In this document: positions 8,311-47,359 of the stretch, piece by piece | Numbering within the stretch: position 1 is the stretch's first letter | Layout of the letters: each line of letters starts with the position of its first letter | DNA from: a virus | Taxonomy: Duplodnaviria; Caudoviricetes | Strand: one strand, 5' to 3' | Length of the DNA stretch: 64,000 nt | IMG/VR virus record: IMGVR_UViG_3300025676_000004 | Location: 70,817-134,816 of that record | Program-made: the position numbers and the translations under genes | Notes under the pieces: generated by a model | What the model was told of the DNA's origin: nothing | The model's database searches: none | The model's input: the letters and a program-made list of their open reading frames with translations, nothing else

Positions 8311-8609
8311 GTAGGGGGTTTAAACCAAGCAGAGGCAGGGTAGCAATACGACACATTGCAGGTGACAATACATCACCAAGTGGAATCATCTACACAACGC
8401 AAGAGAATCCCCATTATAGTAAGGGACAGGTTCTATCAATAGGACATCCAGAATTACTACCGAATGGTACTCCAATTCCTGTAGATTTTGAAGTAGGTGA
8501 TTTTATTGTCTATAATAAAAAGGAAGGTTGGGGAGAATTTTCTGGTGTCCGTATTATTGTACCAGACCAAGTTGTGGCGATAATTGACGAGGATACCCAA
8601 ATCGGATGA
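8307..8609 (+). CDS. groES: Co-chaperonin, GroES/Cpn10 family
   Basis: KPSRGRVAI, mobile loop TSPSGIIY, GQVLSIG, VEVGD-like segment, VVAII; 100 aa. Confidence 0.75.
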   Translation: MSRGFKPSRGRVAIRHIAGDNTSPSGIIYTTQENPHYSKGQVLSIGHPELLPNGTPIPVDFEVGDFIVYNKKEGWGEFSGVRIIVPDQVVAIIDEDTQIG

Positions 8610-8989
8610 AACTCGGAGAATATCTAACAGCAATTAACTATTCCAAAGAACCTCTCTTTGACACAGAAGATACCACAGTGGAGAAAGAATATACACCTTA
8701 TATCATTAACAGGTGTTTATCTAATTTTCCCGATACACTTCTGCAAGTCAACGAGATGAATTTTTGGTGTAGTATCGACAAGAAGATGCATTTTGATTTT
8801 CTTTTGAATGGCACAAGAACACGAAAACGATTTAGTAAATGGCTGAAAGATGTTAAACCAGAAGACTTTGCAGTAGTCAAAGAGTATTTTGGATATTCCG
8901 ATAGGAAGACAAGAGAAGTGATGGACATATTAAATGCTGATGATATTGCAAATATGAAGTTAGATATGGATAAAGGTGGCAAAAAGTAA
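8606..8989 (+). CDS. gp62: Clamp loader small subunit (gp62)
   Basis: YTPYIINRCLS, RKRFSKW, VKEYFGYS, C-terminal KGG. Confidence 0.92.
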   Translation: MKLGEYLTAINYSKEPLFDTEDTTVEKEYTPYIINRCLSNFPDTLLQVNEMNFWCSIDKKMHFDFLLNGTRTRKRFSKWLKDVKPEDFAVVKEYFGYSDRKTREVMDILNADDIANMKLDMDKGGKK

Positions 8990-8994
8990 AAAAA

Positions 8995-9002
8995 TATAAA
9001 TA
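8995..9002 (+). promoter_or_regulatory. T4-type late promoter TATAAATA
   Basis: Exact consensus in the intergenic gap before regA. Confidence 0.6.
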
Positions 9003-9061
9003 CTCTGTGTTAGCATATTATTGTGGCACATCTCAATTATGAAATAATATGGAGTATTAAT

Positions 9062-9475
9062 ATGGAAGAACGATATATTGAAATAGAAGTGAGTGACTTA
9101 TTAGAAATCACTCTCAAGAAAGAAGATGATTTCTTGAAGGTAAAGGAAACCCTTACCAGAATTGGCGTTTCATCTCGCAAAGAAAAGAAACTGTGGCAAT
9201 CGTGTCATATCTTGCACAAAAGAGGCAAGTATTACATAGTACACTTTAAAGAACTTTTTGCGTTAGATGGACTACCAACAAATCTATCAGACGAAGACCT
9301 TGCTAGAAGGAACACCATAGCAAACCTTTTAGAGGAATGGGAACTGTTGGAAATAGTAGACCAAGAGAAGTCAGAAGAACCAATAATTTCTGTGGGTAAG
9401 ATTAAGATTTTACCGCACAGGGAAAAAGATGAGTGGGAATTGTGTCCTAAATACCATATAGGTAAGAAAAGATGA
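9062..9475 (+). CDS. regA: Translational repressor RegA
   Basis: DDFLKVKETLTRIGV, QSCHILHKRGKYYIVHFKELFALDG. Confidence 0.96.
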   Translation: MEERYIEIEVSDLLEITLKKEDDFLKVKETLTRIGVSSRKEKKLWQSCHILHKRGKYYIVHFKELFALDGLPTNLSDEDLARRNTIANLLEEWELLEIVDQEKSEEPIISVGKIKILPHREKDEWELCPKYHIGKKR

Positions 9476-11407: not shown

Positions 11408-12234
11408 GAATATTATTAATCCAAGAAAATGGAAGACACGAAGAGAATAGAAACTACAGAGAATGTTTTTCGTTGCAAAGGTCGTTTGAAAAGTTTGGAA
11501 ATGACTGTGATGTGTGGGGATTTGGACACGACAACTTTGATGTTGTTCCTGATTGGGAATCTTATGATTGGATTATTAATTTAGAAAATTATGATAGCAC
11601 TGGATGGGTGCCTGATTTGTCTGGTGTAAAGAATCCAAAGAAGTTTTTGTGGAGTATCGATGCACATTGCAGGGGAGAGGCAATTTACGAAAATACTTTT
11701 AGAATAGGCAATTATGATATTCTCTTACATTCCACGAAAGACTTTGTAAAACAAAAATACCATCGTTGGTTTCCGAATGCATTCGATGATTCATTAATAA
11801 AACCATTGGACATCGAAACAAAATACGAATTGGGTTTCTGTGGAAACTATGTAAACAGAAAACCAATTCTGGAATGGTTAGAACAGAATCACGGACTACA
11901 TCTGGACATATTCGTAATCGGTGATGCTATGGTAGAAGCAGTCAATTCTTATAAATGTCAATTTAATCTTAATATTGGAAACGATATAAACTATAGGTCG
12001 TTTGAAACTATAGGTTGTGGTACACTTCTTCTTACGAACCACAACTATCAGTATGAAGAACTTGGTTTTGTTGATGGTAAAAATTGCCTAATGTACAAAA
12101 ATCAAAATGAACTAGAAGAAAAAATTCAGTTCATCAAAACTAATAATGTTGAAGAAATTGCAAACAAAGGTTTTGAACTTTCTTTGAATAACACATATAA
12201 TAATAGAGTAGAAGAACTACTAAGAAATGAATAA
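11404..12234 (+). CDS. Glycosyltransferase, GT-B (CgeB-like)
   Basis: GFCG, INYRSFETIGCGTLLLT; TTG start overlapping the previous stop, GGAG RBS. Confidence 0.75.
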   Translation: MRILLIQENGRHEENRNYRECFSLQRSFEKFGNDCDVWGFGHDNFDVVPDWESYDWIINLENYDSTGWVPDLSGVKNPKKFLWSIDAHCRGEAIYENTFRIGNYDILLHSTKDFVKQKYHRWFPNAFDDSLIKPLDIETKYELGFCGNYVNRKPILEWLEQNHGLHLDIFVIGDAMVEAVNSYKCQFNLNIGNDINYRSFETIGCGTLLLTNHNYQYEELGFVDGKNCLMYKNQNELEEKIQFIKTNNVEEIANKGFELSLNNTYNNRVEELLRNE

Positions 12235-13030
12235 AATGACTGCTTTAAGTATTTCAACAAAAGATGCCATATCTCTCATAAAGGATAAAGGACTGAAGAC
12301 TATACAAAATAGTTGGCACTTTAATTACAATATTGAAATATTTTATGAGAAGTGTGGACTTCTCTATGATAAAATAAATGAAATTGTTTATTTAGACTAT
12401 AAAAACTTATTGGGACCTTGGAGTCCTCTACCAATTTGGACACTGGATGGGAACGCAATTCCGTTGCACTATAGTCTTCAAGAAATCGACATCACCCCCA
12501 ATGAAGATACTTTCTATTTTTGGAGAACTATAACGAATAATTTCGATGATTATTTAAATATAAGAACAAAAAGAGCGAAGAAGCAGAATCATTTCCCCAC
12601 AATTTCTAGTTATAACAAACTAAAAAATAATGAAAATATTAGATTAATGATTTTTGATTTTAATTTGAAGAATTATAGTGAAATCGAAAGAAACCAAAAG
12701 GCAGACTGGCACGCGGGTGCGGCCACATACTTACAGCACCCAGGCGTTGGTTGGTCTAGTTCTCCAGAAGAATGGAAAAAAATGGCATATCTGTATCACG
12801 AAGATGAAGTTGTTGCAACGGCTCCCATATTAGTTGATAATAATAGCATTTCCTTATTAAACACTACTGCAAAAAGAACAAAGTATTCGTATGGAGTTAT
12901 TCTTTGTTGTGAAATCATTAAATGGTGTTGTGAAAATGGAAAAATGTCTTTTGATTGTGGTATATCAAAAGATAGGGGTTGCTATAAGCAAAAATCTTTT
13001 TTAGATTGTATTGGGGTTTATGGAAAATAA
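12227..13030 (+). CDS. Putative GNAT-family acyltransferase
   Basis: C-terminal YSYG..L..EIIKWCCENG...FDCG....YK pattern. Confidence 0.55.
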   Translation: MNKMTALSISTKDAISLIKDKGLKTIQNSWHFNYNIEIFYEKCGLLYDKINEIVYLDYKNLLGPWSPLPIWTLDGNAIPLHYSLQEIDITPNEDTFYFWRTITNNFDDYLNIRTKRAKKQNHFPTISSYNKLKNNENIRLMIFDFNLKNYSEIERNQKADWHAGAATYLQHPGVGWSSSPEEWKKMAYLYHEDEVVATAPILVDNNSISLLNTTAKRTKYSYGVILCCEIIKWCCENGKMSFDCGISKDRGCYKQKSFLDCIGVYGK

Positions 13031-28325: not shown

Positions 28326-30254
28326 ATGAATCTACCCACAGAATACCAAAATTTTATACACCTTAGTCGATACTCCAGATGGATGGAAGAAGAAGGTCGT
28401 AGAGAAACTTGGGATGAAACTATAGCACGATATTTTGATTTCTTTGAGGAACACCTCTTAGAAAACAACAACTACAAAGTAACAAAGAATGACCGTAAAG
28501 AACTTGAAGAAGCAATCCTCAATCAAGAAGTGATGCCTTCTATGCGTTCTTTGATGTGTGCAGGTGATGCACTCAAACGAGATAATGTTGCAGGATACAA
28601 TTGTGCGTATTGCACAGCAGGTCGTGTGCGTTCGTTCGATGAGATACTTTATGTTTTGATGTGTGGTGCAGGAGTAGGGTTTAGTGTTGAACGAGGATTC
28701 CTTGACAAACTTCCAACCCTTGCAGATGAATTTGAAAACACAGACACAACTATTGTTATTCAAGACAGCAAGATTGGTTGGGCAAAAGCATACAAAGAAC
28801 TCACTTCACTTTTAATTGGCGGACAAATTCCACAATGGGATGTGTCAAAGATTAGACCCGCAGGAGCAAGACTAAAAACATTTGGTGGTAGAGCATCTGG
28901 TCCTGGACCACTTGAAGATTTATTCAACTTCACGGTTGGAACTTATCAAAGTGCAAAAGGCAGGAAACTAACATCCATCGAATGCCATGACATCATTTGC
29001 AAGATTGCAGAGATTGTAGTGGTTGGTGGTGTTCGTAGGTCTGCACTTTTATCTTTGTCTTCATTGACTGATGAACGAATGCGTGATGCAAAGACAGGTC
29101 AATGGTGGTACGAGAACGGACAACGAGCATTGTCTAATAACTCTGTTGCATATAAATGCAAACCAGAAATTGGTACATTTATGGAAGAATGGTTGTCATT
29201 GTATAAATCTAAATCTGGTGAAAGAGGAATCTTCAACAGAGAGGCGGCACAGAAGACCGTTGAGAAACTTGGTGACAGACGAGATGCAACATATGACTTC
29301 GGTTGCAATCCTTGTTCCGAAATCTTGTTGCGTGACAGAGAGTTTTGCAACTTGTCCGAAGTTGTTATTCGTAAAGATGATACTCTTACAACACTCAAAG
29401 AGAAAGTAAGACTCGCCACAATCATTGGAACTTGGCAAAGCACACTCACAAACTTCCGATACTTATCAAGTGAATGGAAAAAGAATTGTGAGGAAGAACG
29501 ATTGCTTGGTGTTTCAATGACAGGTATTATGGACAACGATTTGACAAACGGTAATATGGGTTCTGCTAAACTCAAGAAATCATTAGAAGAACTTCGTCAA
29601 GTTGCAATTGATACAAACAAAGTATGGGCAAAGAAGTTTAAGATTAACGAAAGTGCCGCAATTACAACAGTCAAACCATCAGGCACAGTTTCGCAATTAG
29701 TTGATTCCGCATCAGGTATTCACTCACGACACGCAGACTATTATATTCGTACCGTTCGTGCAGACATCAAAGACCCTCTGTGTCAATTTATGATTGAGAA
29801 AGGTTTCCCAAACGAACCTGATGTGACTAAACCAGAACACACAATGGTATTCTCATTCCCTATGGAATCACCGAAGAACTCAATCTTCCGTGATGACAAA
29901 ACCGCCATTGAGCAACTTGAACATTGGTTGCTATATCAACGACATTGGTGCGAACATAAACCATCAGTTACAATTTCCGTAAGGGAACACGAATGGATGG
30001 AAGTCGGTGCTTGGGTGTATGACCATTTTGATGAGGTGAGTGGTGTTTCGTTCCTTCCTCATAGTGACCATATCTATCGTCAAGCACCATATCAGGATTC
30101 CACAAAGAAGGAATATAACGAACTTTTAAAGCGAATGCCAAAGGAAGTTGATTGGAGTGAATTGGAAAACTTTGAAAAAGAAGACAATACTACTGGAACA
30201 CAGACCTTGGCGTGCAGTGCTGGCATTTGCGAAATCGTTGATTTAACAAATTAA
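28326..30254 (+). CDS. nrdJ: Class II (adenosylcobalamin) ribonucleotide reductase
   Basis: YNC, VVVGGVRRSA, NPCSE, FCNLSE, KPSGT, C-terminal CSAGIC; no adjacent nrdB. Confidence 0.93.
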   Translation: MNLPTEYQNFIHLSRYSRWMEEEGRRETWDETIARYFDFFEEHLLENNNYKVTKNDRKELEEAILNQEVMPSMRSLMCAGDALKRDNVAGYNCAYCTAGRVRSFDEILYVLMCGAGVGFSVERGFLDKLPTLADEFENTDTTIVIQDSKIGWAKAYKELTSLLIGGQIPQWDVSKIRPAGARLKTFGGRASGPGPLEDLFNFTVGTYQSAKGRKLTSIECHDIICKIAEIVVVGGVRRSALLSLSSLTDERMRDAKTGQWWYENGQRALSNNSVAYKCKPEIGTFMEEWLSLYKSKSGERGIFNREAAQKTVEKLGDRRDATYDFGCNPCSEILLRDREFCNLSEVVIRKDDTLTTLKEKVRLATIIGTWQSTLTNFRYLSSEWKKNCEEERLLGVSMTGIMDNDLTNGNMGSAKLKKSLEELRQVAIDTNKVWAKKFKINESAAITTVKPSGTVSQLVDSASGIHSRHADYYIRTVRADIKDPLCQFMIEKGFPNEPDVTKPEHTMVFSFPMESPKNSIFRDDKTAIEQLEHWLLYQRHWCEHKPSVTISVREHEWMEVGAWVYDHFDEVSGVSFLPHSDHIYRQAPYQDSTKKEYNELLKRMPKEVDWSELENFEKEDNTTGTQTLACSAGICEIVDLTN

Positions 30255-30266
30255 ATTAAATAATTA

Positions 30267-30294
30267 TTGACACCCTTCAATATTAAGGTATAAT
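30267..30294 (+). promoter_or_regulatory. Promoter TTGACA-N16-TATAAT overlapped by the inverted repeat ACCCTTCA/TGAAGGGT
   Basis: Perfect hexamers; inverted repeat at 30272-30301. Confidence 0.8.
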
Positions 30295-30308
30295 GAAGGG
30301 TTGAAATT

Positions 30309-30405
30309 CCATCGGAGTTGATGGTGTGTCTAAATAACAGACATAATAAAACGAAGTCGGAGTTGACTTCACGGTGCATTCCGCACCACCCTCTTTTGCC
30401 AGAGG
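30309..30405 (+). ncRNA. Multi-hairpin 5' leader or candidate cis-regulatory RNA
   Basis: Five consecutive hairpins, two with an identical TCGGAGTTGA core. Confidence 0.5.
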
Positions 30406-30431
30406 TTTAATTCTTTAAAGGAGAAATTAAA

Positions 30432-30605
30432 ATGGCTAAATGTACAGAAAGTTGCGGCACAGATGTTGTGACAAATGCGTTAGGTAAGGTCGGTGTATGT
30501 CGCAGTATGCTAATCACATTAGCACTTCTTCCATTTGCATGGAACGGTGTTACTTGGGTTGGTGGTGCTATTCGTGAACTTTGGGGTCTTATTCAAGGCG
30601 TCTGA
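30432..30605 (+). CDS. Small membrane protein (57 aa)
   Basis: AAGGAG RBS; MAKCTESCG...MLITLALLPFAWNGV. Confidence 0.7.
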   Translation: MAKCTESCGTDVVTNALGKVGVCRSMLITLALLPFAWNGVTWVGGAIRELWGLIQGV

Positions 30606-30637
30606 TGCCTTGAATTTTTAAAAAAAGGAGATAACCT

Positions 30638-31768
30638 ATGAATATCTCAATGATTACAAAGTTTGGTATTGCTTCAGTTGTTGCAGGACTTGCAACAATG
30701 GCAAATGCTGATACCAACGCAGACCTTCAAGCAAGAATTGAACAGGCAGAAGCACGAATTGCTGAACTGACTGCATCAAATAGCGATAACTGGATGAACG
30801 ACCAACGAGCAGAAGAAACTCGTCAACTCGTTCACGATGTTCTTGCTGATGCAGACACACGGGCATCAATGCAGGGTGACGGTTCACCCGTCACTGTAAA
30901 TGTTCATGGTTTCGCACAATTCCGTTGGTCAATCAATGACACGAAGCAAGATGCTGTCACTGAAACTCACGGATTTAGTCTTCCTGCTGTTCGTCTTGAA
31001 TTCGATGGTGACATCTATGATTGGTCATATCGAGTTAGTGGACAATGGGATGATGGTGGTGCATTCACATTGAAGGATGCATACGCAGATTGGAATGGTT
31101 TCCGAGTTGGTCAATTCAAGAGTCCTTTTATGAAGGAATGGTTGACTTACCGTGCTGACACTTTGACAGCAGACCGTTCGATTGTTGCATACACATTTGG
31201 TCAGGGTAGAAGTCAAGGTATCCAATACGGATATGACTTCAGTTCTGGTCTAAAGTTCACTGCCGCATACACTGACGGATTCAATTCCGACAATGGTGCA
31301 GGTGTTCAAAATGGTTATGCACTTACTGGTCGTCTTGATTACGAAGGTGCTTGGTTCAACCTTGGCGCCGCAGTATCACACAACGACCTTGATGTGACGG
31401 ATTACAACACTTGGACTGTGGATGCTTCCACAAGTCTTAGAGGTTTTGATTTCACTAGTGCATATGTTGCACAGAGTGGAGATATTGGTTCTAACTGGGC
31501 AACAGTTTTGACTGCCGCTTACTCAATGGGTAAATGGCAACCATTCGTTCAGTACCAATATGGTGAATTAGAAGGTGTTACTGATAACCTCAGTATTGGC
31601 ACTTTCGGTGTAAACTATACAGTAAACGAGAATATTAAATGGACTACCGACCTTGGTTATTCATTCAATACAGTCGATGCAGGTTGGAACACGGATAACA
31701 CTGGATGGAATACATCGAGTGCAGAGGGCGAATACCTTCTCCGTACACAACTTCAGATTCGATTCTGA
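30638..31768 (+). CDS. Outer-membrane beta-barrel porin (OprO/OprP-like, Phycisphaerae type)
   Basis: Signal peptide, coiled coil ..QRAEETRQLVHDVLADADTRAS, DAY..W/GQFK.PF, amphipathic strands, C-terminal Phe. Confidence 0.82.
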   Translation: MNISMITKFGIASVVAGLATMANADTNADLQARIEQAEARIAELTASNSDNWMNDQRAEETRQLVHDVLADADTRASMQGDGSPVTVNVHGFAQFRWSINDTKQDAVTETHGFSLPAVRLEFDGDIYDWSYRVSGQWDDGGAFTLKDAYADWNGFRVGQFKSPFMKEWLTYRADTLTADRSIVAYTFGQGRSQGIQYGYDFSSGLKFTAAYTDGFNSDNGAGVQNGYALTGRLDYEGAWFNLGAAVSHNDLDVTDYNTWTVDASTSLRGFDFTSAYVAQSGDIGSNWATVLTAAYSMGKWQPFVQYQYGELEGVTDNLSIGTFGVNYTVNENIKWTTDLGYSFNTVDAGWNTDNTGWNTSSAEGEYLLRTQLQIRF

Positions 31769-31796
31769 TAACGAGATTCATTTCTCGACACTTTTC

Positions 31797-31831
31797 GCAA
31801 CCCCTTAGAGAAATCTGAGGGGTTGTTTTTT
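31797..31831 (+). terminator. Rho-independent terminator
   Basis: GCAACCCCTTAGA..TCTGAGGGGTTGT followed by a T run. Confidence 0.85.
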
Positions 31832-31875
31832 ATACATATAGTAGATTAATCTAAAAACTAACAAAGGAGTTTAAA

Positions 31876-32397
31876 ATGACACTACAAGATAGAATTTGGG
31901 CATCGAGAATTAACTTCTCTGCCGAAGAAATCCAAGAAGACCATATGATAGGAAAATCCGTTATCGTAGCGGGCGAAGCAGGAACAGTAACCAAAGAACT
32001 TGCTGCCGATGCCACAGGCGAAGTATATGAAGTTGAATTTGAAGACGGTTCAACTAAAGAAATTCCTGTAGGTAATATGGAACTCGCCACTGAAAGTTGC
32101 AATAATAATACCTGTAACGAGTCTGTTAAAGATTCGGATGAAGCAGGGACAGTTGAAAATGAACTTGAAGAAGGTGGCAAAGAAGAGTATGAAAAGTTCT
32201 TCAAATCTGCCCTTAAAAAGTTCGGTGTAGATTCACCGGCAGACCTAGAAGATGATAAGAAGAAAGAATTCTTTGACTATGTTGATAAGAATTGGAAGGG
32301 TGAAAAGAACGAATCTGTTACATTTACAGAAGCAGAACTTGCCCACTTTGAAAAAGTCAATAGTTCTGATGAACGAACAGACTCTGGTGGATTTTAA
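31876..32397 (+). CDS. Acidic T4-like head-associated hypothetical protein
   Basis: YEKFFKSALKKFGVDSPADL...KEFFDYVDKNW domain; late-like TACATATA upstream. Confidence 0.6.
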   Translation: MTLQDRIWASRINFSAEEIQEDHMIGKSVIVAGEAGTVTKELAADATGEVYEVEFEDGSTKEIPVGNMELATESCNNNTCNESVKDSDEAGTVENELEEGGKEEYEKFFKSALKKFGVDSPADLEDDKKKEFFDYVDKNWKGEKNESVTFTEAELAHFEKVNSSDERTDSGGF

Positions 32398-32503
32398 ACT
32401 TACATAACTAAACATAAACCCCTTGTAAGAATATACCAATAATTACTTGGGGTTTTTTGTTTTTTCAGTCTAATTTTTCAGCCGTTTTTTATACATATAA
32501 TAG

Positions 32504-33298
32504 ATGTTCAGAAAAATTAAATATGCCTTAGCAACTATATTATGTATTTTGAATGTGGGTTGTATAAACTCACAGACCGCAACATCTCTACCTCAACATT
32601 ATTTTTCCGATTTAGTAATCGAAGAACCAATTGAAGTCAATCCACTTGACATCTGGTTTCAACCAATCACAATAGAAAATGACCCGTATCCATCAGTGTG
32701 TAGTTTACATACGCACGATGGTTCTTTATTGGGCAGTGGTATACTTATCCGACCAAATGTCGTTCTAACGGCAGGTCATTGCATAGATGAGGACAATATC
32801 TACTCTATAATTATAGGTGAAGAGGAGATAATGGTAAAAGATATGATTCTTCACCCCCATTACAGCGACACATCTGGCCGGGTAAAAAACGATATTGGAT
32901 TGATAATCCTCGAATGTGATTCTATTTACGAACCTGCAACGATTGGGTGCGTAGATTGGATGGAGCGATATCAAGATATAACAACAGTTGGTTACTCGCA
33001 CGGTTATAAGAAGTTTAGTAGACTAAGTGTATTTCGATACTTTGGGACAGTATCATCTGAACCCAACTCTATGAAGTTCTTACCACGACCAATTCCAATT
33101 TGGTTTGGTGATTCGGGTGGTGGAGTGTTCGCAGAGTTTCAAGGTAGAAAATATGTTGTTGGTATCATTAGTTACTTTAAAATGATTAGAGTATTTGGCG
33201 GAGAAGAAATCGTATCAGAATGTTCGGCAGTGAACATTGCAAAGTATTTGAATTGGATAAATGAGGAAATTGAAATTGAAGGATTGGTTAAAGAATAG
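32504..33298 (+). CDS. Trypsin-like (S1) serine protease, exported
   Basis: TAGHC, DIGL, GDSGG triad; N-terminal signal peptide with Cys. Confidence 0.88.
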   Translation: MFRKIKYALATILCILNVGCINSQTATSLPQHYFSDLVIEEPIEVNPLDIWFQPITIENDPYPSVCSLHTHDGSLLGSGILIRPNVVLTAGHCIDEDNIYSIIIGEEEIMVKDMILHPHYSDTSGRVKNDIGLIILECDSIYEPATIGCVDWMERYQDITTVGYSHGYKKFSRLSVFRYFGTVSSEPNSMKFLPRPIPIWFGDSGGGVFAEFQGRKYVVGIISYFKMIRVFGGEEIVSECSAVNIAKYLNWINEEIEIEGLVKE

Positions 33299-33496
33299 AT
33301 TGAATTTATTAATGACACCCATAGGTGCCTGTGTTGGTGTTAGTGGTTTCTTCATTGGTATATTATTAGTAAAATTTATCGAAATATTAGGTAATCATTG
33401 ATGGAGTGGGATAAGGGATTAGAATTACTTCTCATTATCTCTTTGTATTTCCTTACCGAATGCATGGTGAAGAAAGATTCCGATGATAAATAGTAT

Positions 33497-33928
33497 ATGG
33501 AACATTATGGACACTGGAACAATTTACCCGATGACTTTAACCCAGACGATTGGTTTGGGTTTGTTTATTGTATTACTCGCAAAGACACCGAGAGAAAATA
33601 CATTGGTAAGAAACAAATTCATTCGTATCGCCGCAAGAAAGTCAAAGGCAGAAAGAACCGCAAGAAGGTAATCACCGAATCAAAGTGGCGTGAATACACT
33701 GGTTCTTGTGATAACCTAAACGAAGAAATAGAAACACTCGGAAAAGATAAGTTTGTCTTTGAGGTTTTACGATTGTGTAAGACCAAAGGACAACTTACTT
33801 TTTCTGAAGTGGAATTTCAAATCAAGTTAGATGTGCTTACTGCTAAATTGAAAAATGGCGAACGAGAATACTACAACGCAAATATTATGAATCGGTGGTA
33901 TTCTTCTTCGTTTGTCCAAGATACTTAA
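33497..33928 (+). CDS. GIY-YIG endonuclease
   Basis: GFVYCIT...KYIGKK, YTGS, YYN. Confidence 0.8.
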   Translation: MEHYGHWNNLPDDFNPDDWFGFVYCITRKDTERKYIGKKQIHSYRRKKVKGRKNRKKVITESKWREYTGSCDNLNEEIETLGKDKFVFEVLRLCKTKGQLTFSEVEFQIKLDVLTAKLKNGEREYYNANIMNRWYSSSFVQDT

Positions 33929-34814
33929 ATCCATTTTTGATTTTCACCTGAGCAACAATCTTCTTAGTCATAGGAGATTGTAATCTGCTGGCGAATCCAT
34001 CACGACCAAATATTTCTTTTCGTTCTTCGTCATTAAGATGGTCTTTCATCTCTTCAATAAGTTCGACAATCTCTACTAGTGCCTTTTCATTGTTCTTGCC
34101 GGTTAATAGCATATACGCAATAACACCCATCGTGATGATAAACCCACCAATCAATACAATCAATCCTACCTGTGCAATCTCTTCCATATAGTATTGTGAT
34201 GCAGTCGAGAATCCAACTGTGAGGACACCCACAGCAAGCAGGACAGCACCTAACCGTCCGTTCACCCAGAATGTAATGAATGCCCCTGCAACAAGCATAC
34301 CGAATCCTAAAGTAAAGAATAGAGTGATGTTTTCGTGTAGGTTCTCAATCGCCTCTTTGCGAATTTCCCTATCAGATTGTTCGTACTCTTTGACTAAATC
34401 TTCAAGGTCTTCTATCTGTCCCACTGCGGCGGATACTCTTGCATTGGCAGATTCCAAATCTTCTAATGCTTCTTCAATTCTGATGTTTTCTTTTTGTGCT
34501 TCATCAACAGATTCTTTGATTGCTTCTGCGGAATCTTCGATAGAATCTACAGTTGGGTCAATGTTATAATTTCGGTCATTGGGAATAACTGCAATTTCAT
34601 TTAGTATTGCATCTGCGTGACCATCAATAGTTTGCAAACCACCACCAATTTCATTAGTGGCATTTCCAATTTCTTCTGTTTGTTCTTTTTGTTCTCTTAG
34701 AGAATCGACAACGGTTGATGATGTGTTCTCTGGATTATTCACTTCCCATTGTTCAAATGCTTCACATCCGAATAAAGTTGATGTAAGTGCTACAATCATT
34801 ATTAAATTTTTCAT
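33885..34814 (-). CDS. Lipoprotein with long coiled coil and three C-terminal TM helices
   Basis: Lipobox LFGC, acidic heptad region, three hydrophobic segments. Confidence 0.75.
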   Translation of the reverse strand: MKNLIMIVALTSTLFGCEAFEQWEVNNPENTSSTVVDSLREQKEQTEEIGNATNEIGGGLQTIDGHADAILNEIAVIPNDRNYNIDPTVDSIEDSAEAIKESVDEAQKENIRIEEALEDLESANARVSAAVGQIEDLEDLVKEYEQSDREIRKEAIENLHENITLFFTLGFGMLVAGAFITFWVNGRLGAVLLAVGVLTVGFSTASQYYMEEIAQVGLIVLIGGFIITMGVIAYMLLTGKNNEKALVEIVELIEEMKDHLNDEERKEIFGRDGFASRLQSPMTKKIVAQVKIKNGFKYLGQTKKNTTDS

Positions 34815-41336: not shown

Positions 41337-41842
41337 CACGAATTAAAGTGAACATACCCGAAGCAGTTTCGGGTGATTTTAGAATTGAGAAAATTAAAAC
41401 AGACCACTATTGTGGCAGTGATGAACCGTTAGATACCTATACGGTTCTTTTTAATCCACACCACAATATAATGCAAGACACCACAAGAGAATATAAAGAA
41501 CACGAACAGTTCCTAAAAGATGCACACGGTGATGTATTGGTCGCAGGTCTTGGTATTGGTATGATTCACCAATCACTCATCGACAATCCCAATGTAAAAT
41601 CTGTAACCATTGTAGAGAAGTATCAAGAAGTAATTGATATGGTATGGGAACACTGTCCGAAAGATGGAACTTTCAGATTAGTTCACGCAGACATCTATGA
41701 ATGGCAACCCGATTCCAAATGGGATATGGGGTGGTTTGATTCTTGGGTTGGTGAGAACGAACAAAACGAATATAAGAAATTAATGAAAGAACAATATGGT
41801 TCTTCTGTTTCTGATATTCGGTTTTGGAATAGGATGGCGTAA
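41333..41842 (+). CDS. SAM-dependent methyltransferase (spermidine-synthase-like fold)
   Basis: GDVLVAGLGIG, VTIVEK, AD, WFDSW. Confidence 0.7.
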   Translation: MTRIKVNIPEAVSGDFRIEKIKTDHYCGSDEPLDTYTVLFNPHHNIMQDTTREYKEHEQFLKDAHGDVLVAGLGIGMIHQSLIDNPNVKSVTIVEKYQEVIDMVWEHCPKDGTFRLVHADIYEWQPDSKWDMGWFDSWVGENEQNEYKKLMKEQYGSSVSDIRFWNRMA

Positions 41843-41915
41843 CACACCCGGCAGGACTCGAACCTGCGACTGCCGGATTAGAAATCCGATACTCTATCCA
41901 CTGAGTTACGGGTGC
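41843..41915 (-). tRNA. tRNA-Arg(TCT)
   Basis: Cloverleaf; GTTCGAGTC T-loop; anticodon loop TTTCTAA. Confidence 0.93.
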
Positions 41916-41925
41916 AGAATTCTAC

Positions 41926-42060
41926 TTATCTTTTTTTTGGTTTGATTAGTTTGGAATCTTTTTTTGGTTTCTTCCTAAAACATTTTTCCCAATTCTTACG
42001 ATATTGGTCTTCATCAGTAGGCCTACGCTTACTGCCTTTTCCTGCTTGACCGTCAACCAT
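41926..42060 (-). CDS. Small basic phage protein (44 aa)
   Basis: Manually read ORF: GKGSKRRPTDEDQYRKNWEKCF. Confidence 0.6.
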   Translation of the reverse strand: MVDGQAGKGSKRRPTDEDQYRKNWEKCFRKKPKKDSKLIKPKKR

Positions 42061-42274
42061 CGCAGTCACAACACTTACCCATAATTCGTTTCAACAAACT
42101 ACATTTCGTAGTTCTGCAACATTCAACATCCCAACAATCACCTTCTGTAATTTCGGATGGAACTTTTTCAATATTATCCATTGCTCGTTCTGATGTTTTT
42201 TGAGTTTCTTTTTCTGTTAGCATTACTGTAACGGAAACGCCGTCAATCACAACTTTACCATAATAATAATTCAT
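42053..42274 (-). CDS. Small Cys-rich hypothetical protein
   Basis: AGGAG RBS, ORF. Confidence 0.6.
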   Translation of the reverse strand: MNYYYGKVVIDGVSVTVMLTEKETQKTSERAMDNIEKVPSEITEGDCWDVECCRTTKCSLLKRIMGKCCDCDG

Positions 42275-42286
42275 ACCAATTCTCCT

Positions 42287-42898
42287 TTAAATATCAATCT
42301 CTTGCCAATCTTTTTCTGCAACCAAATGCATTGACCAATTTCCGAATCCTGTTTGTGGGGATTCTACTGTTTCACCAACTTCTTCAAAGATGAATGGTCT
42401 ACCATTTACCATTGAAGTATAAATCGGTGAATCATATCCCATACGACCTTTCGCAAACACTTCTTTCTTTCCATATCCCAACCAATTGTTTTCACACTTA
42501 TTTGTACCAATCAGATATGCTTTACTGTCACCCTTGATTGCTCCCTTTGGAACAAACAAAATAGAATCTTGGTCAAACATCTCACCAAACTCTCGCAAAT
42601 CCTTTTCAAGATTTCCGTTGTCCACCAAGTCAACTACGAAGTAACTAATCTCAGTAACACTCTTGCCACCTTCTGGATATTTGCCGTGTAGTTTAGTAAC
42701 ACCATATCCCTTGCTCTTTAGTTTGGCAAGAAGTGACTTGTTTCGTTGTGCGTTTTGTTTATTGGTGAAAGGTGTTCCTTCACCACAATCTGGTCCTTTG
42801 CGGAACGCCGTCAATGCACCACAATTGTGTTCTTCGTTATGTTTCCATAAACGAGAGAGTGATGACTCGTTGATAAATTGTTTATATTGTTTACTCAT
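42287..42898 (-). CDS. Conserved T4-like hypothetical protein
   Basis: NESSLSRL, TAFR, G.Y.E, FDQDSILF. Confidence 0.75.
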   Translation of the reverse strand: MSKQYKQFINESSLSRLWKHNEEHNCGALTAFRKGPDCGEGTPFTNKQNAQRNKSLLAKLKSKGYGVTKLHGKYPEGGKSVTEISYFVVDLVDNGNLEKDLREFGEMFDQDSILFVPKGAIKGDSKAYLIGTNKCENNWLGYGKKEVFAKGRMGYDSPIYTSMVNGRPFIFEEVGETVESPQTGFGNWSMHLVAEKDWQEIDI

Positions 42899-43078
42899 CG
42901 CAATTCTTCTTTAGATTTCCTTCGTGAATTCTTAGGACACTTGGTTTTCTTACCCCAAGTCTTTGCCCTATTTATAGGAGTTCCGTTACCGTCCCTCTCT
43001 GATGTTTTGTCTTTTGTTGTTTGTTTCATCATAAAGTATTTATACAAGTTTCGCCATATTCCGTTCACTCATACTAAT

Positions 43079-43106
43079 ATTATACTCTATAATTATACAA
43101 TGTCAA
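43079..43106 (-). promoter_or_regulatory. Promoter TTGACA-N16-TATAAT, ATG 6 nt downstream
   Basis: Perfect hexamers on the minus strand. Confidence 0.8.
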
Positions 43107-43135
43107 ATGAATAAACTGTGCTATACTCTGCAAAA

Positions 43136-43209
43136 CGAGATGGAAGGGACTCGAACCCTCAACCTTCGGCTCGACAGGCCGATGTTCTAACCAATTGAAC
43201 TACCATCCC
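43136..43209 (-). tRNA. tRNA-Asp(GTC)
   Basis: Cloverleaf; anticodon loop CTGTCGA. Confidence 0.93.
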
Positions 43210-43215
43210 AAAAAA

Positions 43216-43580
43216 GACGGCAGGGAATCTTTTCTCTCTCCCAAAAAAAGACTCTACCTGCCGCCCACTTCATAAAATTAAATCGTTCCTAGTGAGGGCC
43301 ACTCACTCTAGTCCTAATGAATCCTACATCATCTTCACACCCGAAGGTGTCACCGAAGGCCTTGTAACGGAAGGAACGAATTATTTATACGGCGGTTTGG
43401 ATAAGCGTTGCGTTTTTCACTTCGTCCAATTAGTCCCTCTGTCTAGAACTTGGGATTACTGATTGTGCTTATGCACCACCGATTTGTTCAGTCACGGAGT
43501 TTGTACAGGTCATGACCCCTGCACTTTTTTATTCAATTATCAAAGAAATCCGATGATGGGGTTTCCCCCACCATCAGAGG
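43216..43580 (-). ncRNA. Candidate structured non-coding RNA(s) upstream of tRNA-Asp
   Basis: ORF-poor, GC-richer stretch with multiple stems, UUCG and GAAA loops, and an internal TATAAATA. Confidence 0.5.
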
Positions 43581-43602
43581 GGGCGTCAATTCAAAACTTG
43601 TA

Positions 43603-43854
43603 TCAAACAAGTCCTGCCTTGATTGCGAATGGGTTGTCAGTGTAACCACTAAAATCCATTCCATAACAAATAACACCGTTGTCAAGTGTGCGTGTGGAAA
43701 CTTCCCAATTTCCGTATGCTTCAACTTGACCTTTGATGTTGCTCATAGTTGCACGAAGATTCTTCACACCAAAACGGCTGTATGCTTGCTTAGGTGTGAT
43801 GTCATTACCACGGGCAAGGTGGTTGATAACTCGTTGTTTCTTTGTGTAGGTCAT
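43603..43854 (-). CDS. Winged-HTH DNA-binding protein
   Basis: KKQRVINHLARG..ITPKQA.SRFGVKNLRA. Confidence 0.7.
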   Translation of the reverse strand: MTYTKKQRVINHLARGNDITPKQAYSRFGVKNLRATMSNIKGQVEAYGNWEVSTRTLDNGVICYGMDFSGYTDNPFAIKAGLV

Positions 43855-43937
43855 AATAAAAACTCCAATATACGGTACTTCAAAATTCAAAGGTTGGATG
43901 TCACCGCAAGCATCTGTTCCCTTATTGTTATAATAGT

Positions 43938-43965
43938 ATTATAGACTATATTGAACGCCGTTCAA
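43938..43965 (-). promoter_or_regulatory. Promoter TTGAAC-N16-TATAAT
   Basis: Hexamers on the minus strand upstream of the HTH gene. Confidence 0.7.
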
Positions 43966-44183
43966 GTCTTTTTTTGTACGAATTCGTAAATTTTTTCTGC
44001 TTCGTTCCGAATGGCTTCTGTTGATGGAAATTCTGGTCTTTCCTTAACAGGGCATTCGCCTGTTAGTTGCTCATCAAATTGCCAGTTGTTCCAAACTTCG
44101 TGGTCTGAATAGAACTTGTCTAATAGACCTTGCTTTGCTTCTTGCCAAATTTCAAACCGTAAACTGTAAGGGTTGTCACTCAT
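43962..44183 (-). CDS. Conserved small T4-like protein
   Basis: NPYSLR.EI..EAK...FP....I..EAEKIYEFV; AAGGAG RBS. Confidence 0.7.
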   Translation of the reverse strand: MSDNPYSLRFEIWQEAKQGLLDKFYSDHEVWNNWQFDEQLTGECPVKERPEFPSTEAIRNEAEKIYEFVQKKT

Positions 44184-44216
44184 TTTATTTCTCCTTGTGT
44201 GTATGTGCGACTGTGT

Positions 44217-44264
44217 GTTGAGAACACCGTGTTCTCGTAAGTTGAGAACACCGTGTTCTCGTAA
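44217..44264. repeat. Tandem 24-bp repeat, each unit containing the palindrome GAGAACAC-C-GTGTTCTC
   Basis: GTTGAGAACACCGTGTTCTCGTAA x2. Confidence 0.95.
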
Positions 44265-44274
44265 TTATGTATAA

Positions 44275-44347
44275 TGGGTCGGGTGGGACTCGAACCCACG
44301 ACTCTCGCATTAAAAGTGCGATACTCTGCCGACTGAGTTACCGACCC
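44275..44347 (-). tRNA. tRNA-Lys(TTT)
   Basis: Cloverleaf; anticodon loop CTTTTAA. Confidence 0.93.
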
Positions 44348-44352
44348 GAAGG

Positions 44353-44733
44353 TCAGTGTTTCTTTATTATAGGTAACGGTGCTTCATAGTATATGTCGAG
44401 TCCAACTGCCTTTGCAGTATGCCATTCGGCCTTGGCGCCACGACTCTCTTCCCAACCCCACATCATATAAATTGCAGTACATTCTTCACAAATAACAACC
44501 AAGTCTCTCTTGAGTGCTTCACGCATAAATTCACGGTCTTCATAATTTGTTTCGGGGTCAAACTCTAAATGGCCGCCGGGGGGTTCTCCCTCTTCTCTAT
44601 CCATCTGAGCAGGATTGATAACTCGCCAACCTTGTTCTTCAAGAATTGTTGCTTGACGGTCGAACGCAGGGAAGTTTCCTTCCTCATATCCTCGCATCGG
44701 TCCTGCGATATAGATTGTTGGTTGTCTATTCAT
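44353..44733 (-). CDS. DUF4406 / nucleoside deoxyribosyltransferase-like protein
   Basis: IYIAGPMRG, NFPAF, INPA, GWEESRGAKAE. Confidence 0.82.
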   Translation of the reverse strand: MNRQPTIYIAGPMRGYEEGNFPAFDRQATILEEQGWRVINPAQMDREEGEPPGGHLEFDPETNYEDREFMREALKRDLVVICEECTAIYMMWGWEESRGAKAEWHTAKAVGLDIYYEAPLPIIKKH

Positions 44734-44936
44734 CCTGACTCTTCTTCAAATCGTGCTTTGATTTCCTGTTGAACATAATAATCTTCAAGGACTTCTCTAA
44801 GATTTTGATTTGCATCTCTCAGTTCATCTGAAAGTTTTTCAGCAATCCTCATATGTTTCCTATAATGTAACATACAGTTAAAAATATACAAGTTATAACC
44901 TATCAGAAAACAAATAATGATATATTCAAACATCAT
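44730..44936 (-). CDS. Small membrane-anchored protein
   Basis: N-terminal TM segment plus coiled coil. Confidence 0.55.
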   Translation of the reverse strand: MMFEYIIICFLIGYNLYIFNCMLHYRKHMRIAEKLSDELRDANQNLREVLEDYYVQQEIKARFEEESG

Positions 44937-45582
44937 TCCACTCTTTTAATATGACCTTCGCCTCGTTATCACCACGGGTCTTCAGTATCTCTTGACCCTT
45001 CAGACCAATCCAAGCATCGAATTCATTGGTAAACCTTGCACCACCGTTATCAATAACATCAGCACCCATAAACTCACCAGTGACAAAGCAGTATGCACAG
45101 TCAGAACCCATCGGTAAGATATACTTTGGGTCAAGCAATTTCTTACGAACCTCTTCAAGTTCTTCTTCAGACATATCTGGTTCTAATCGTTTTTCAATTG
45201 GGACCCAAGGAATATCGAAATCGCTCATTGCATATGCAAATGCAAGTGCCTCTGCACTCGCCCAAGATACATCATATTCTTCATACAGTTTATGAAACAA
45301 CACAGTCATATACTGTGCCTTCGCTTCTGTCATTTTTGATTCTTCCCAAGAAAAAGTATGGAATCCGTTTGGACTTGAAAATCCCCACATCTTCACTGTT
45401 CTTACACAGTCATCGCCAAACTTGACGAAGTAACCTTCTTCATCATGGATTTCTTCTGCCCAATCGCCGTCTTTGTCATATCCGTGTTCCATCATAACAG
45501 ACACACTGATATTTTTTTCTGTCAAGTAGGAATCTACTTCCTCTTGAGTCATTGAACATAGTCTTGATTTTTCTTTTTCCAT
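44926..45582 (-). CDS. Hypothetical protein (leaderless start)
   Basis: ORF; ATG 6 nt after the -10 box. Confidence 0.7.
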   Translation of the reverse strand: MEKEKSRLCSMTQEEVDSYLTEKNISVSVMMEHGYDKDGDWAEEIHDEEGYFVKFGDDCVRTVKMWGFSSPNGFHTFSWEESKMTEAKAQYMTVLFHKLYEEYDVSWASAEALAFAYAMSDFDIPWVPIEKRLEPDMSEEELEEVRKKLLDPKYILPMGSDCAYCFVTGEFMGADVIDNGGARFTNEFDAWIGLKGQEILKTRGDNEAKVILKEWNDV

Positions 45583-45588
45583 ACGCAT

Positions 45589-45616
45589 AGTATACCACAG
45601 ATAGAACGGAAGTCAA
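45589..45616 (-). promoter_or_regulatory. Promoter TTGACT-N16-TATACT
   Basis: Hexamers with TG extension. Confidence 0.75.
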
Positions 45617-45769
45617 CTACAAAGTGTATGCAAAATACATCACAGTCCATATGCCTAACATACAAACCACAGTGATAACGCCAATTGATATAAGTGCCAC
45701 TCTATATTTTCTTTGGCGTTCTCTTATTGCTTCTGGTGTTTCTTTTTTTTTGTAATAGATGTTTATCAC
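45617..45769 (-). CDS. Small membrane protein
   Basis: GTGA overlap with the guaC stop; C-terminal TM segment. Confidence 0.5.
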
Positions 45770-46809
45770 GAATCCCCAAATACCACATTCAACTGGCGAT
45801 TTACCCGAACGAATGTAGTACATTTCGGCAATTGCTTGATTGTCCTTGCACCTGTATAAGTACAGGCACTTCGCACCCCACCCATAATATCCTGTAGGGT
45901 ATTTTCTACAGCACCTCGACATGACACCTTCACTGTCTTACCCTCTGATGCTTTGTAGGTTGCGACACCACCACTATGCTTCTTCATAGCAGTATCACTA
46001 GACATACCATAGAACACCTTGTGAGACGCTCCTGAGTCGTCTGTAACGACTTCTCCTGCACATTCTTCGTGTCCTGCAAGCATTCCTCCCAACATAACGA
46101 AGTCTGCTCCTGCACCGAATGCTTTTGCAATGTCGCCAGGGCATTGACATCCACCATCCGCCATAATAAATCCGTTTAGTCCATGAGCGGCATCTGCACA
46201 TTCCATCACGGCGGATAATTGCGGGAAACCGACTCCCGCTTTTTTGCGAGTTGTGCAAACAGAACCTGGTCCGATGCCAATCTTTACAATGTCTGCACCC
46301 GCAAGGATAAGTGCTTCAGTCATTTCTGCTGTAACTACATTCCCTGCAATAATAATTTTCTCTGGCCACTTGTCCTTGACATCTTTTACAAAATCAACAA
46401 ATCGTTGAGTGTAACCGTTTGCAACATCCAAGCAGAAGAATGGTTTATGTTTGGCGAATTCAGAAAGATTACTCGCACCATCATTAGTGAGCAATTGCAT
46501 CTCTGCATCTTCATTCATTCCAAACGAAATTGCCAAGTTGTTATCTCCAAACGAATCACCATAATTCAAATGACTTATATGTTTACTTAAACAAGTCAAC
46601 ATACTATGCTTGGACAATGCTTCGCCCATTTCAAGTGTTCCGATTGTATCCATATTGGCGGCGACAATTGGAACACCAATCCATTCTTTGCCATTTTTGA
46701 ATATAAAGTTTCGGTATAAATCTACTTGCTTGCGGGAAGTTAGTGTTGACCTCTTTGGTCTAATAAGAACATCTGCATAATCAAGTTTCACATCATCTAA
46801 AATTTTCAT
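45766..46809 (-). CDS. guaC: GMP reductase
   Basis: [46 protein letters not shown]. Confidence 0.95.
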
Positions 46810-46824
46810 TAATCAATCTCCAAG

Positions 46825-46897
46825 TGGGACGAGTGGGACTTGAACCCACGAAAATAGAGGTATAAACTCTACTGCTGATACCATCCGCTTCCGTCCC
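46825..46897 (-). tRNA. tRNA-Ile(TAT)
   Basis: Acceptor stem GGGACGG/TCGTCCC, anticodon loop TTTATAC, GTTCAAGTC; weak D-arm. Confidence 0.8.
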
Positions 46898-46913
46898 ATA
46901 TAATACACACATT

Positions 46914-47174
46914 CTACAGTGAAGTAGATTTAATGTCAATAGTAATCTTCTTATTACTTACATGACCATTTTCATTCTTGTCAAGGTAATTGGACTTCTG
47001 CCTGTCTTCATCAAAACCAAGACGATAACCAACTTTACTGACACCGTGCATTTCCATTTTCATACACTGATGTCTATCATCGTGAAACAACCATTCCATT
47101 AGATGTTGAGAAGTATGAATTGCCTTCTCTTCATCTGTTCCAAGTGGAATGTCAATATGTAATCTATATTGCAT
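46914..47174 (-). CDS. Hypothetical protein
   Basis: AAGGAG RBS before MQYRLHIDIPLG. Confidence 0.7.
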   Translation of the reverse strand: MQYRLHIDIPLGTDEEKAIHTSQHLMEWLFHDDRHQCMKMEMHGVSKVGYRLGFDEDRQKSNYLDKNENGHVSNKKITIDIKSTSL

Positions 47175-47193
47175 AACTAACTCCTTTGTAACA

Positions 47194-47266
47194 TACGAGT
47201 GGTGGGACTTGAACCCACACTTGAGGGATTTTAAGTCCCTTGCCTCTGCCATTGGGCTACACTCGC
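47194..47266 (-). tRNA. tRNA-Leu(TAA), short variable loop
   Basis: Cloverleaf; anticodon loop CTTAAAA; 73 nt. Confidence 0.9.
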
Positions 47267-47285
47267 TTAACTCTCTCAGGAAAAA

Positions 47286-47359
47286 TGACCCCAAGGAGAT
47301 TTGAACTCCTGTTTTCAGGATGAAAACCTGATGTCCTAACCGAACTAGACGATGGGGTC
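47286..47359 (-). tRNA. tRNA-Glu(TTC)
   Basis: Cloverleaf; anticodon loop TTTTCAT. Confidence 0.92.

Follow-up and report, generated by a model that had tools for sequence, protein, structure and literature searches.

We describe here a two-gene cassette that codes for a small membrane peptide of 57 aa (pep57) and a porin of 376 aa, found at positions 30267-31826 of a 64,000-nucleotide stretch of phage DNA. This stretch, hereafter the window, corresponds to bases 70817-134816 of the 134.8-kb IMG/VR virus record IMGVR_UViG_3300025676_000004, for which a completeness of 75% was estimated by CheckV. With a confidence slightly below even, we propose that these two genes travel as a mobile early unit within a lineage of uncultured T4-like phages from the sea, that the unit would provide an outer-membrane channel for nutrient uptake, and that the host is probably a member of the Planctomycetota with a high guanine and cytosine (GC) content.

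All parts of the cassette lie on the forward strand and form a single unit, in which a promoter within a hairpin is followed by a structured leader, the pep57 and porin open reading frames and a terminator. A preliminary description of this DNA, made from the sequence alone, had claimed exactly such a self-contained arrangement with a barrel ending in phenylalanine, and each of its parts was found in place. The sigma-70 promoter (TTGACA at 30267-30272 and TATAAT at 30289-30294, with a 16-nt spacer) agrees with the consensus at 12/12 positions and is the sole perfect site in 29800-33600. It lies within an 8-bp hairpin whose arms, ACCCTTCA (30272-30279) and TGAAGGGT (30294-30301), covary across related loci and show plus-strand G-T pairs (e.g. 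in L019, L022 and L024). Following the published definition of the promoter-early stem-loop (PeSL) of T4-type phages (Arbiol et al. 2010, PMC2839356), namely a sigma-70 consensus promoter, an overlapping stem-loop with G-T pairs and an AT-rich stretch upstream, we assigned the element at 30267-30301 to this type, as all three features are present. A PeSL acts as a strong early promoter and as a terminator for upstream transcription, and also mediates the shuffling of cassettes (PMC2839356). Since the 12/12 sigma-70 promoter is of PeSL type, early expression of the cassette would be expected. Known PeSL cassettes, which were described in the coliphages RB49 and phi1, share with the present one the promoter overlapped by a stem-loop, the AT-rich upstream stretch, a downstream Shine-Dalgarno sequence with ATG and the occupation of more than one genome position; the phage studied here adds a 124-nt structured leader after the promoter.

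This leader (30308-30431) contains five hairpins (30309-30324, 30327-30343, 30353-30370, 30373-30387 and 30390-30405), two of them with GGAGUU loops, and a Shine-Dalgarno GGAG at 30420-30423. It is followed by the pep57 open reading frame (30432-30605), whose stop codon (30603-30605) is held in the loop of a 9-bp hairpin at 30591-30615 that precedes a TTTT stretch, and by the porin open reading frame (30638-31768, ending in LQIRF). An intrinsic terminator with a 13-bp stem and a T-run (31797-31826) closes the cassette.

The porin was carried by 85 IMG/VR contigs and its family comprises more than 400 clusters at 54-68% identity to the window protein, while the relatives of pep57 fall into 578 clusters at 90% identity, all of them from marine metagenomes. 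Some 75 of 80 IMG/VR loci, and 69/69 unselected metagenome loci with sufficient upstream DNA, have pep57 immediately before the porin; this co-occurrence and the cluster numbers are far beyond chance, and the strict co-occurrence is the basis on which pep57 is regarded as a putative partner of the porin. The order is reversed in one IMG/VR locus, the sole such case seen (L074:1-1085), where the porin is followed by pep57 27 nt apart. In most loci the cassette follows a ribonucleotide reductase (RNR) gene, and in L022, L024 and L028 it is found between homologs of the genes 8462-9358 and 12222-12947 of G000; at least two genome positions are thus occupied among related phages. Nucleotide identities of pep57 reach 87-92% in the same locus pairs in which those of the porin are 63-69%. 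The porin alleles are strongly divergent and shuffled among otherwise close phages, their similarity tracking neither that of RNR nor that of pep57. Two cassette positions, mosaic identities of porin, RNR and pep57, and a porin similarity that does not follow its neighbours amount to modular shuffling of accessory genes, consistent with PeSL-mediated exchange.

The same pattern bears on the main rival to nutrient uptake, a two-layer superinfection exclusion or receptor masking in which a loop-trimmed porin would flood the outer membrane and displace or dilute the host porin that serves this phage or its competitors as receptor, while pep57 would block incoming DNA in the manner of T4 Imm. Divergent and shuffled porin alleles beside a near-invariant peptide would suit such a device, as would the location of the cassette at two or more genome positions, reminiscent of accessory “hyperplastic” genes, the early-type promoter, as for T4 imm and sp, and the specificity of the peptide to phages. 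We nevertheless regard exclusion as rather unlikely in view of the conserved channel features of the porin that are presented below; dilution of an abundant receptor would moreover be slow within one infection cycle.

The cassette resides in a phage with a GC content of 38% and a replication block of T4 type, comprising a family-B polymerase (PolB), UvsX/RecA, a DnaB-type helicase, a primase, ThyX, a class-II-like RNR and a ligase. Further genes code for a GMP reductase and a glutamine synthetase of GlnII type. PolB is 49% identical to cyanomyovirus polymerases, and nothing closer was found among 50,697 GenBank phages. The cassette lies directly downstream of the RNR gene, with the ThyX and RNR genes upstream.

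The porin consists of a signal peptide (residues 1-24, cleavage at ANA/D), a helical N-terminal domain (about 25-81) and a 16-strand barrel (86-375) with the C-terminal beta-signal R-x-Q-x-Q-x-x-F. Its AlphaFold (AF2) model shows the signal peptide, two N-terminal helices and 16 strands, with a predicted local distance difference test score of 72 overall and 83-91 over most of the barrel, and was matched by Foldseek to trimeric porins only. The barrel fold claimed in the preliminary description was therefore recovered by modelling. Structural re-alignment, which concerns the predicted model only, gave Z-scores of 25.9 for OprP and 25.7 for OprO as compared to 23.9, about 2 Z lower, for general porins, so that the modelled barrel appears closest in fold to OprP/OprO. 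These two proteins of Pseudomonas aeruginosa (PDB 2o4v and 4rjw; PF07396) also have 16 strands and superpose on the model with a root-mean-square deviation of 2.4-2.5 Å over 275 residues, but share just 17-18% identity with it and no sequence-level match; the phage porin further differs from them in its added N-terminal helical domain, its much shorter loops and its length of 376 aa, compared to 411-426 in their chains.

Direct scans of Pfam, NCBIfam, PHROG and PADLOC assigned the window porin to no named family, and a search of the 50,697 GenBank phage records returned no match. Four out of 20 close relatives match the Pfam family Porin_O_P, PF07396 (best 2e-11), three match Porin_4, and PF07396 is also carried by the cellular relatives. 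In BFVD, a few metagenomic phage proteins are annotated as porins, with 9-12% identity to the window protein. Conservation is highest at the end of loop L3 (GQGRSQG), in the preceding strand (GQFK.PF) and in “loop 4” (YTDGFN..NGAGV.NG), and the motifs GQFK.PF, GQGRSQG and NGAGV.NG are common to phage and cellular porins. R57, L64, V68, L69, A70 and R75 are invariant in alignment A1. As judged from strand parity in the model, invariant Arg, Lys, Gln and His residues (R96, R119, K161, R191, R232, K334 and R369) would face the lumen. That the L3/L4 motifs are the best conserved part, and are shared with cellular porins, argues for a working channel and against exclusion. A further point against exclusion is that the predicted surface loops, minimal as they are, hold no particular share of the variation. 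The codon usage of the porin gene also departs from that of the phage, with ATA, TTA and AAA at 0%, 4% and 25% versus phage averages of 21%, 21% and 62%, a choice that fits translation before phage tRNAs build up, or high expression.

In order to place the porin among cellular proteins, several homology searches were combined. HMMER analysis of 1.84 billion representative sequences returned a tight group of 340-390 aa followed by a broad group of 430-480 aa, and all 10 named cellular relatives were classified as Phycisphaerales, Phycisphaeraceae, Phycisphaerae or Planctomycetota. The patterns GQGRSQG[VI] and NGAGV[QV]NG, searched in 185,579 species genomes, identified three loci, all from Phycisphaerae/Planctomycetota, whilst a single-sequence pattern search of GTDB genomes for the porin gave no match. 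The nearest ESM Atlas clusters were viral and the next ones from Planctomycetota. Matches at E ≤ 1e-20 were obtained in 44/301 Phycisphaerae genomes versus 13/401 genomes across a sample of the phylum, 11 of these 13 recurring in the class sample. These results agree with the preliminary description, which had placed the nearest relatives in the Planctomycetota; best homologs outside this phylum did not emerge from the porin homology searches. The N-terminal Phycisphaerales motif that it had named also proved real, as cellular porins have W/..ERR.E.. followed by ..V.(D/E)MLADA.TRSS, and the coiled coil with the LADA..R.S motif was likewise seen in L089, L090, L092, L094 and L095. The coiled-coil porins of Phycisphaerales/Phycisphaerae (e.g. 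MCA9295526.1), an unnamed family usually annotated as “porin” or “OprO/OprP family”, have the N-terminal coiled coil, the barrel motifs and the C-terminal R-x-Q-x-Q-x-x-F in common with the phage porin. They differ from it in being 430-480 aa long, in being encoded in GC-rich genomes, often in tandem arrays, and in never occurring with pep57, and are 27-40% identical to it. One Phycisphaeraceae metagenome-assembled genome (MAG) has two porins of this cellular family in tandem (L002:3351-8700), and the neighbouring genes code for a response regulator and a histidine kinase with a PAS domain, for which the best NCBIfam matches, below trusted cut-offs, were PhoB and PhoR/PnpS.

The relationship to the cellular family is distant. 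Identity amounts to 27-31% by BLAST to GTDB genomes and to 35-40% over the stretches matched by HMMER, and the phage porins have a median length of 379 aa versus 439 aa for the cellular ones. The porin gene has a GC content of 44%, as compared to 58-73% in Phycisphaerae loci. In an unrooted tree of 77 sequences, obtained by a quick search without an outgroup, the 39 phage and metagenome sequences were split from the 38 cellular ones by one branch with a support of 94 in the Shimodaira-Hasegawa-like approximate likelihood ratio test, the phage porins thus forming a group of their own rather than falling among cellular sequences. Low identity, shorter length, the GC gap and the separate tree group together indicate that the capture is old, and on sequence grounds we propose that phages acquired the porin in the distant past from a bacterium of Phycisphaerae type. 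An old capture also implies that the porin alone does not fix the present host.

The porin-bearing contigs all have a GC content of 34-49%, and 37/43 metagenome loci of at least 5 kb carry other homologs of the genes of this phage, which establishes a phage clade and not a contamination. That a cellular gene entered a viral contig through faulty assembly or binning is accordingly ruled out, both by the phage-like composition of the porin gene and by its conserved synteny with phage genes, seen in some 80 IMG/VR loci and in these 37/43 long metagenome loci; no close copy was present in the 702 Planctomycetota genomes searched either. The sole hint of such an artefact is a homolog deposited as “MAG: Candidatus Aminicenantes bacterium” (P0105), which is 57% identical to the phage porin and probably stems from a phage contig mis-binned into the MAG. 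The metagenome locus L164 has a GC content of 44% and contains pep57. On a further metagenome contig of 23.9 kb and 38% GC (L150:1-21104), pep57 and the porin occur with no other homolog of this phage's genes, and their neighbours code for glycosyltransferases, a sulfotransferase, a 2OG-Fe(II) oxygenase, an FG-GAP repeat protein and PcfJ/ArdC-like proteins; the cassette may be present in a different phage type too.

The host was approached independently via the tRNA genes of the phage, which are encoded on the reverse strand at 41842-47359 of the window (Arg-TCT, Asp-GTC, Lys-TTT, Ile-TAT, Leu-TAA and Glu-TTC). They read AGA, GAC, AAA, ATA, TTA and GAA, five of these being A-ending codons common in the phage but rare in genomes of high GC content. 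In phage open reading frames, AGA, ATA and TTA account for 21-31% of the codons in their families, versus 1-4% in Phycisphaerae loci; this contrast and the tRNA set are what one would expect if a T4-like phage rich in AT infects a GC-rich host. The tRNAs hence suggest a GC-rich host independently of the porin, but are unspecific as to phylum. The interpretation in the preliminary description, a phage porin pointing to a planctomycete host, is partly supported: the porin relatives are indeed Phycisphaerae/Planctomycetota proteins, yet the phage copies are distant from them (27-40%) and stand apart in the tree. We consider a Planctomycetota host plausible, with even chances of being correct, and a Phycisphaerae-like one is favoured by the porin ancestry and by the retention of host-fitting parts, that is the periplasmic N-terminal domain and the signal for the beta-barrel assembly machinery (BAM).

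There is also a substantial chance that an ancient porin capture now serves another GC-rich Gram-negative marine host, the likeness to Phycisphaerae then reflecting survival or sampling of the cellular family. This would be in keeping with the position of the phage copies outside the Phycisphaerae sequences in a tree that has no outgroup, with a best GTDB genome match of only about 31% identity, with the lack of pep57 in 401 Planctomycetota genomes, with the cyanomyoviruses as nearest neighbours of PolB at 49%, and with the great diversity of the lineage in pelagic metagenomes; the searches of named cellular genomes were, in addition, pattern-limited or restricted to Planctomycetota. Against it stand the named cellular relatives, all of them from Planctomycetota, and the host-specific parts kept by the porin (the motif of the periplasmic N-terminal domain and the beta-signal). 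No psbA was found in the 134.8-kb record, at its 75% completeness, and the tRNA set speaks against low-GC hosts such as SAR11. Glutamine synthetase (2567-3655 of the window) scores 344 bits for the GlnII type versus a cut-off of 500, and its nearest ESM Atlas clusters are mostly viral, giant-virus members among them, so that these matches carry no information on the host.

The peptide has a core of R-S-x-L-x-T-L-A-L-x-P-F/Y-x-W-x-G-V-x-W with 12 invariant columns (alignment A2), preceded by a variable N-terminus that mostly contains Cys, and was modelled as a single long helix spanning residues 24-56. None of the 578 clusters belongs to a Pfam family, and pep57 has no match in the 50,697 GenBank phage records, PHROGs, NCBIfam or PADLOC. 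It was not found by a six-frame search of 401 Planctomycetota genomes, which gave one match at E 0.0015, about chance level. As far as these searches tell, pep57 is specific to phages. It could modulate a transporter or sensor of the host inner membrane, block DNA entry as Imm does, or serve mainly to couple porin translation to its own. The Imm and Sp proteins of T4 are small early membrane proteins that confer superinfection exclusion, Imm having two membrane helices. Like them, pep57 would be a small early membrane protein, but it has one predicted helix and no detectable similarity to either; the lack of similarity of both pep57 and the porin to Imm, Sp or any PHROG or PADLOC family is a further point against exclusion.

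The leader was analysed in an alignment of 26 distinct loci, in which three helices are 95-100% paired and 12 pairs show changes on both sides; the observed values were reached by 0/500 shuffles, and no slid control came close either. The covariance model R1 built for it scores 125 bits at the cassette, with no other significant site in the 134.8-kb phage genome, and detects one copy, ending at the pep57 ATG, in 52/80 related IMG/VR loci. No Rfam family reached its gathering score for the leader, nor in 20 related loci. Assignment to the Rfam freshwater-2 RNA (RF02980) was rejected at 23.1 bits (E 0.24) versus a gathering threshold of 49.9 bits. With a single R1 site in this phage genome and no Rfam family, the leader is a structured RNA specific to the cassette, and covariation makes it a candidate for a new cis-regulatory RNA, either a riboswitch or a target of a CsrA-type protein. 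The hairpin at the pep57 stop precedes the porin ribosome-binding site, and many loci have hairpins of different, covarying sequence at the position matching 30591-30615; in L030, L039, L050, L055, L061 and L076 a canonical GC-rich terminator with a T-run occupies the pep57-porin junction. This suggests that the 30591-30615 hairpin may be an attenuator or an element of translational coupling between the two genes.

Based on these observations, we propose the following course of events for nutrient uptake. Soon after infection, the sigma-70 RNA polymerase of the host would transcribe a two-gene mRNA from the hairpin-embedded promoter, the translation of which would be modulated by the cassette-specific leader. 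pep57 would insert in the inner membrane as a single helix with its N-terminus probably in the cytoplasm, since positive residues precede the helix. The porin would be exported by Sec, cleaved at ANA/D and folded by BAM into the host outer membrane via its C-terminal beta-signal, where its 16 strands would build a channel of OprO/OprP type, presumably a trimer, whose surface loops are very short and whose helical N-terminal domain would lie in the periplasm. The most likely benefit would be an outer membrane that is more permeable to small, probably anionic, nutrients such as phosphate in a long infection, and the solutes gained would feed nucleotide synthesis by the products of the ThyX and RNR genes directly upstream. 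Uptake is favoured by this neighbourhood, by the OprO/OprP-like fold, by the kept channel motifs, by the PhoB/PhoR-like pair, below trusted cut-offs, next to the cellular porins of one Phycisphaeraceae genome and by the precedent of oprP in freshwater amoC-phages. A more specific version, in which leader, pep57 and porin constitute a regulated uptake device invented by phages, the leader maybe binding a ligand or a CsrA-type protein, and mark a T4-like clade infecting Phycisphaerae, is in our estimation improbable though worth stating.

Several results weigh against this proposal. The window porin gives no PF07396 hit at E ≤ 1, and its family profile found only chance-level matches among PDB sequences. 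Among the cellular relatives there are several paralogs, and their gene contexts differ, with peptidoglycan recycling as one example, so that the family is not uniformly a phosphate family; moreover, no PhoH or PstS-type family was found in the 134.8-kb record (75% complete). With the nearest GTDB protein about 31% identical, no donor lineage was found, and the GC content of the phage as a whole (38%) is far from the 58-73% of Phycisphaerae loci. The phage porins are about 60 aa shorter than the cellular ones and have short inter-strand connections, as superinfection exclusion would lead one to expect, and the turnover of the porin, by evolution or by exchange, is far quicker than that of the genes around it, a pattern that would fit a gene in an arms race no less than a channel for nutrients.

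Genes further downstream bring in another explanation, lysis or envelope remodelling, in which, as infection ends, pep57 would act like a holin and the barrel would make the outer membrane permeable. The gene at 32504-33298 codes for a trypsin-like serine protease that bears a lipoprotein signal (..LNVGC) and is kept 1-2 genes 3' of the porin in most loci, and a second predicted lipoprotein, with C-terminal membrane helices, is encoded on the reverse strand at 33885-34814; the envelope-directed neighbourhood around the cassette may be wider than two genes. While these lipoproteins and the pairing of a one-helix small membrane protein with an outer-membrane protein would accord with lysis, the promoter is of early and not of late type, the cassette has no endolysin and lies in the block for replication and nucleotide metabolism, and the porin keeps the channel motifs of normal cellular porins, all of which make lysis very improbable. 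On the upstream side, the RNR slot (28326-30254) holds two unrelated RNR types in related phages (L006-L014, L027, L034, L039 and more): identity is 69-93% in some loci and just 29-31% in others, and by sequence comparison this swap within one slot is a gene replacement in situ.

Our search of the literature on phage porins in Phycisphaerae, on pelagimyophages, on T4-like phages of Phycisphaerae and on porins as marine auxiliary metabolic genes found no description of this cassette; as far as could be traced, the clade, the peptide and the leader are described in no paper or GenBank phage record. Related strategies are nevertheless known. Cyanophage pstS and phoA boost the phosphate supply for DNA synthesis and are under host Pho control. 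The logic proposed here is the same, but the proteins and the compartment differ, and the cassette has a constitutive-looking early promoter and its own leader instead of host Pho control. The Lc porin of the lambdoid phage PA-2 and NmpC of the prophage DLP12 are phage-encoded general porins that enter the host outer membrane and alter its porin make-up. They are OmpC-like and expressed from prophages in enterobacteria, unlike the window porin, and no relation to it was detected in the search of 50,697 GenBank phage records. Freshwater amoC-phages carry a host-like oprP, a phosphate-porin-type gene regarded as host-derived, as is proposed here (bioRxiv 10.64898/2026.06.18.733297). Those genes are recent captures, highly similar to the genes of the predicted hosts (bioRxiv 10.64898/2026.06.18.733297), whereas the window porin belongs to an old phage-specific clade of marine T4-like phages with its own peptide and leader.

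Porins carried by phages had been described in a small number of prophages and, of late, in jumbo phages of freshwater. Here a porin has long been kept by a whole lineage of lytic marine T4-like phages, always with a phage-only peptide and a cassette-only leader. If the nutrient channel is real, the “auxiliary metabolism” of phages would extend to the outer membrane; if the cassette is an exclusion device instead, it would be of a new, two-membrane design. In either case the ancestry of the porin names Phycisphaerae as a definite host candidate, open to testing, for an abundant group of uncultured phages, and the cassette offers a specific probe for phage fluorescence in situ hybridisation (phageFISH), viral tagging or polymerase chain reaction. 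Should the reading of a regulated uptake device in Phycisphaerae hold, the cassette would be a marker gene for a large global clade of T4-like phages that infect marine Phycisphaerae, hosts for which hardly any phages are known.

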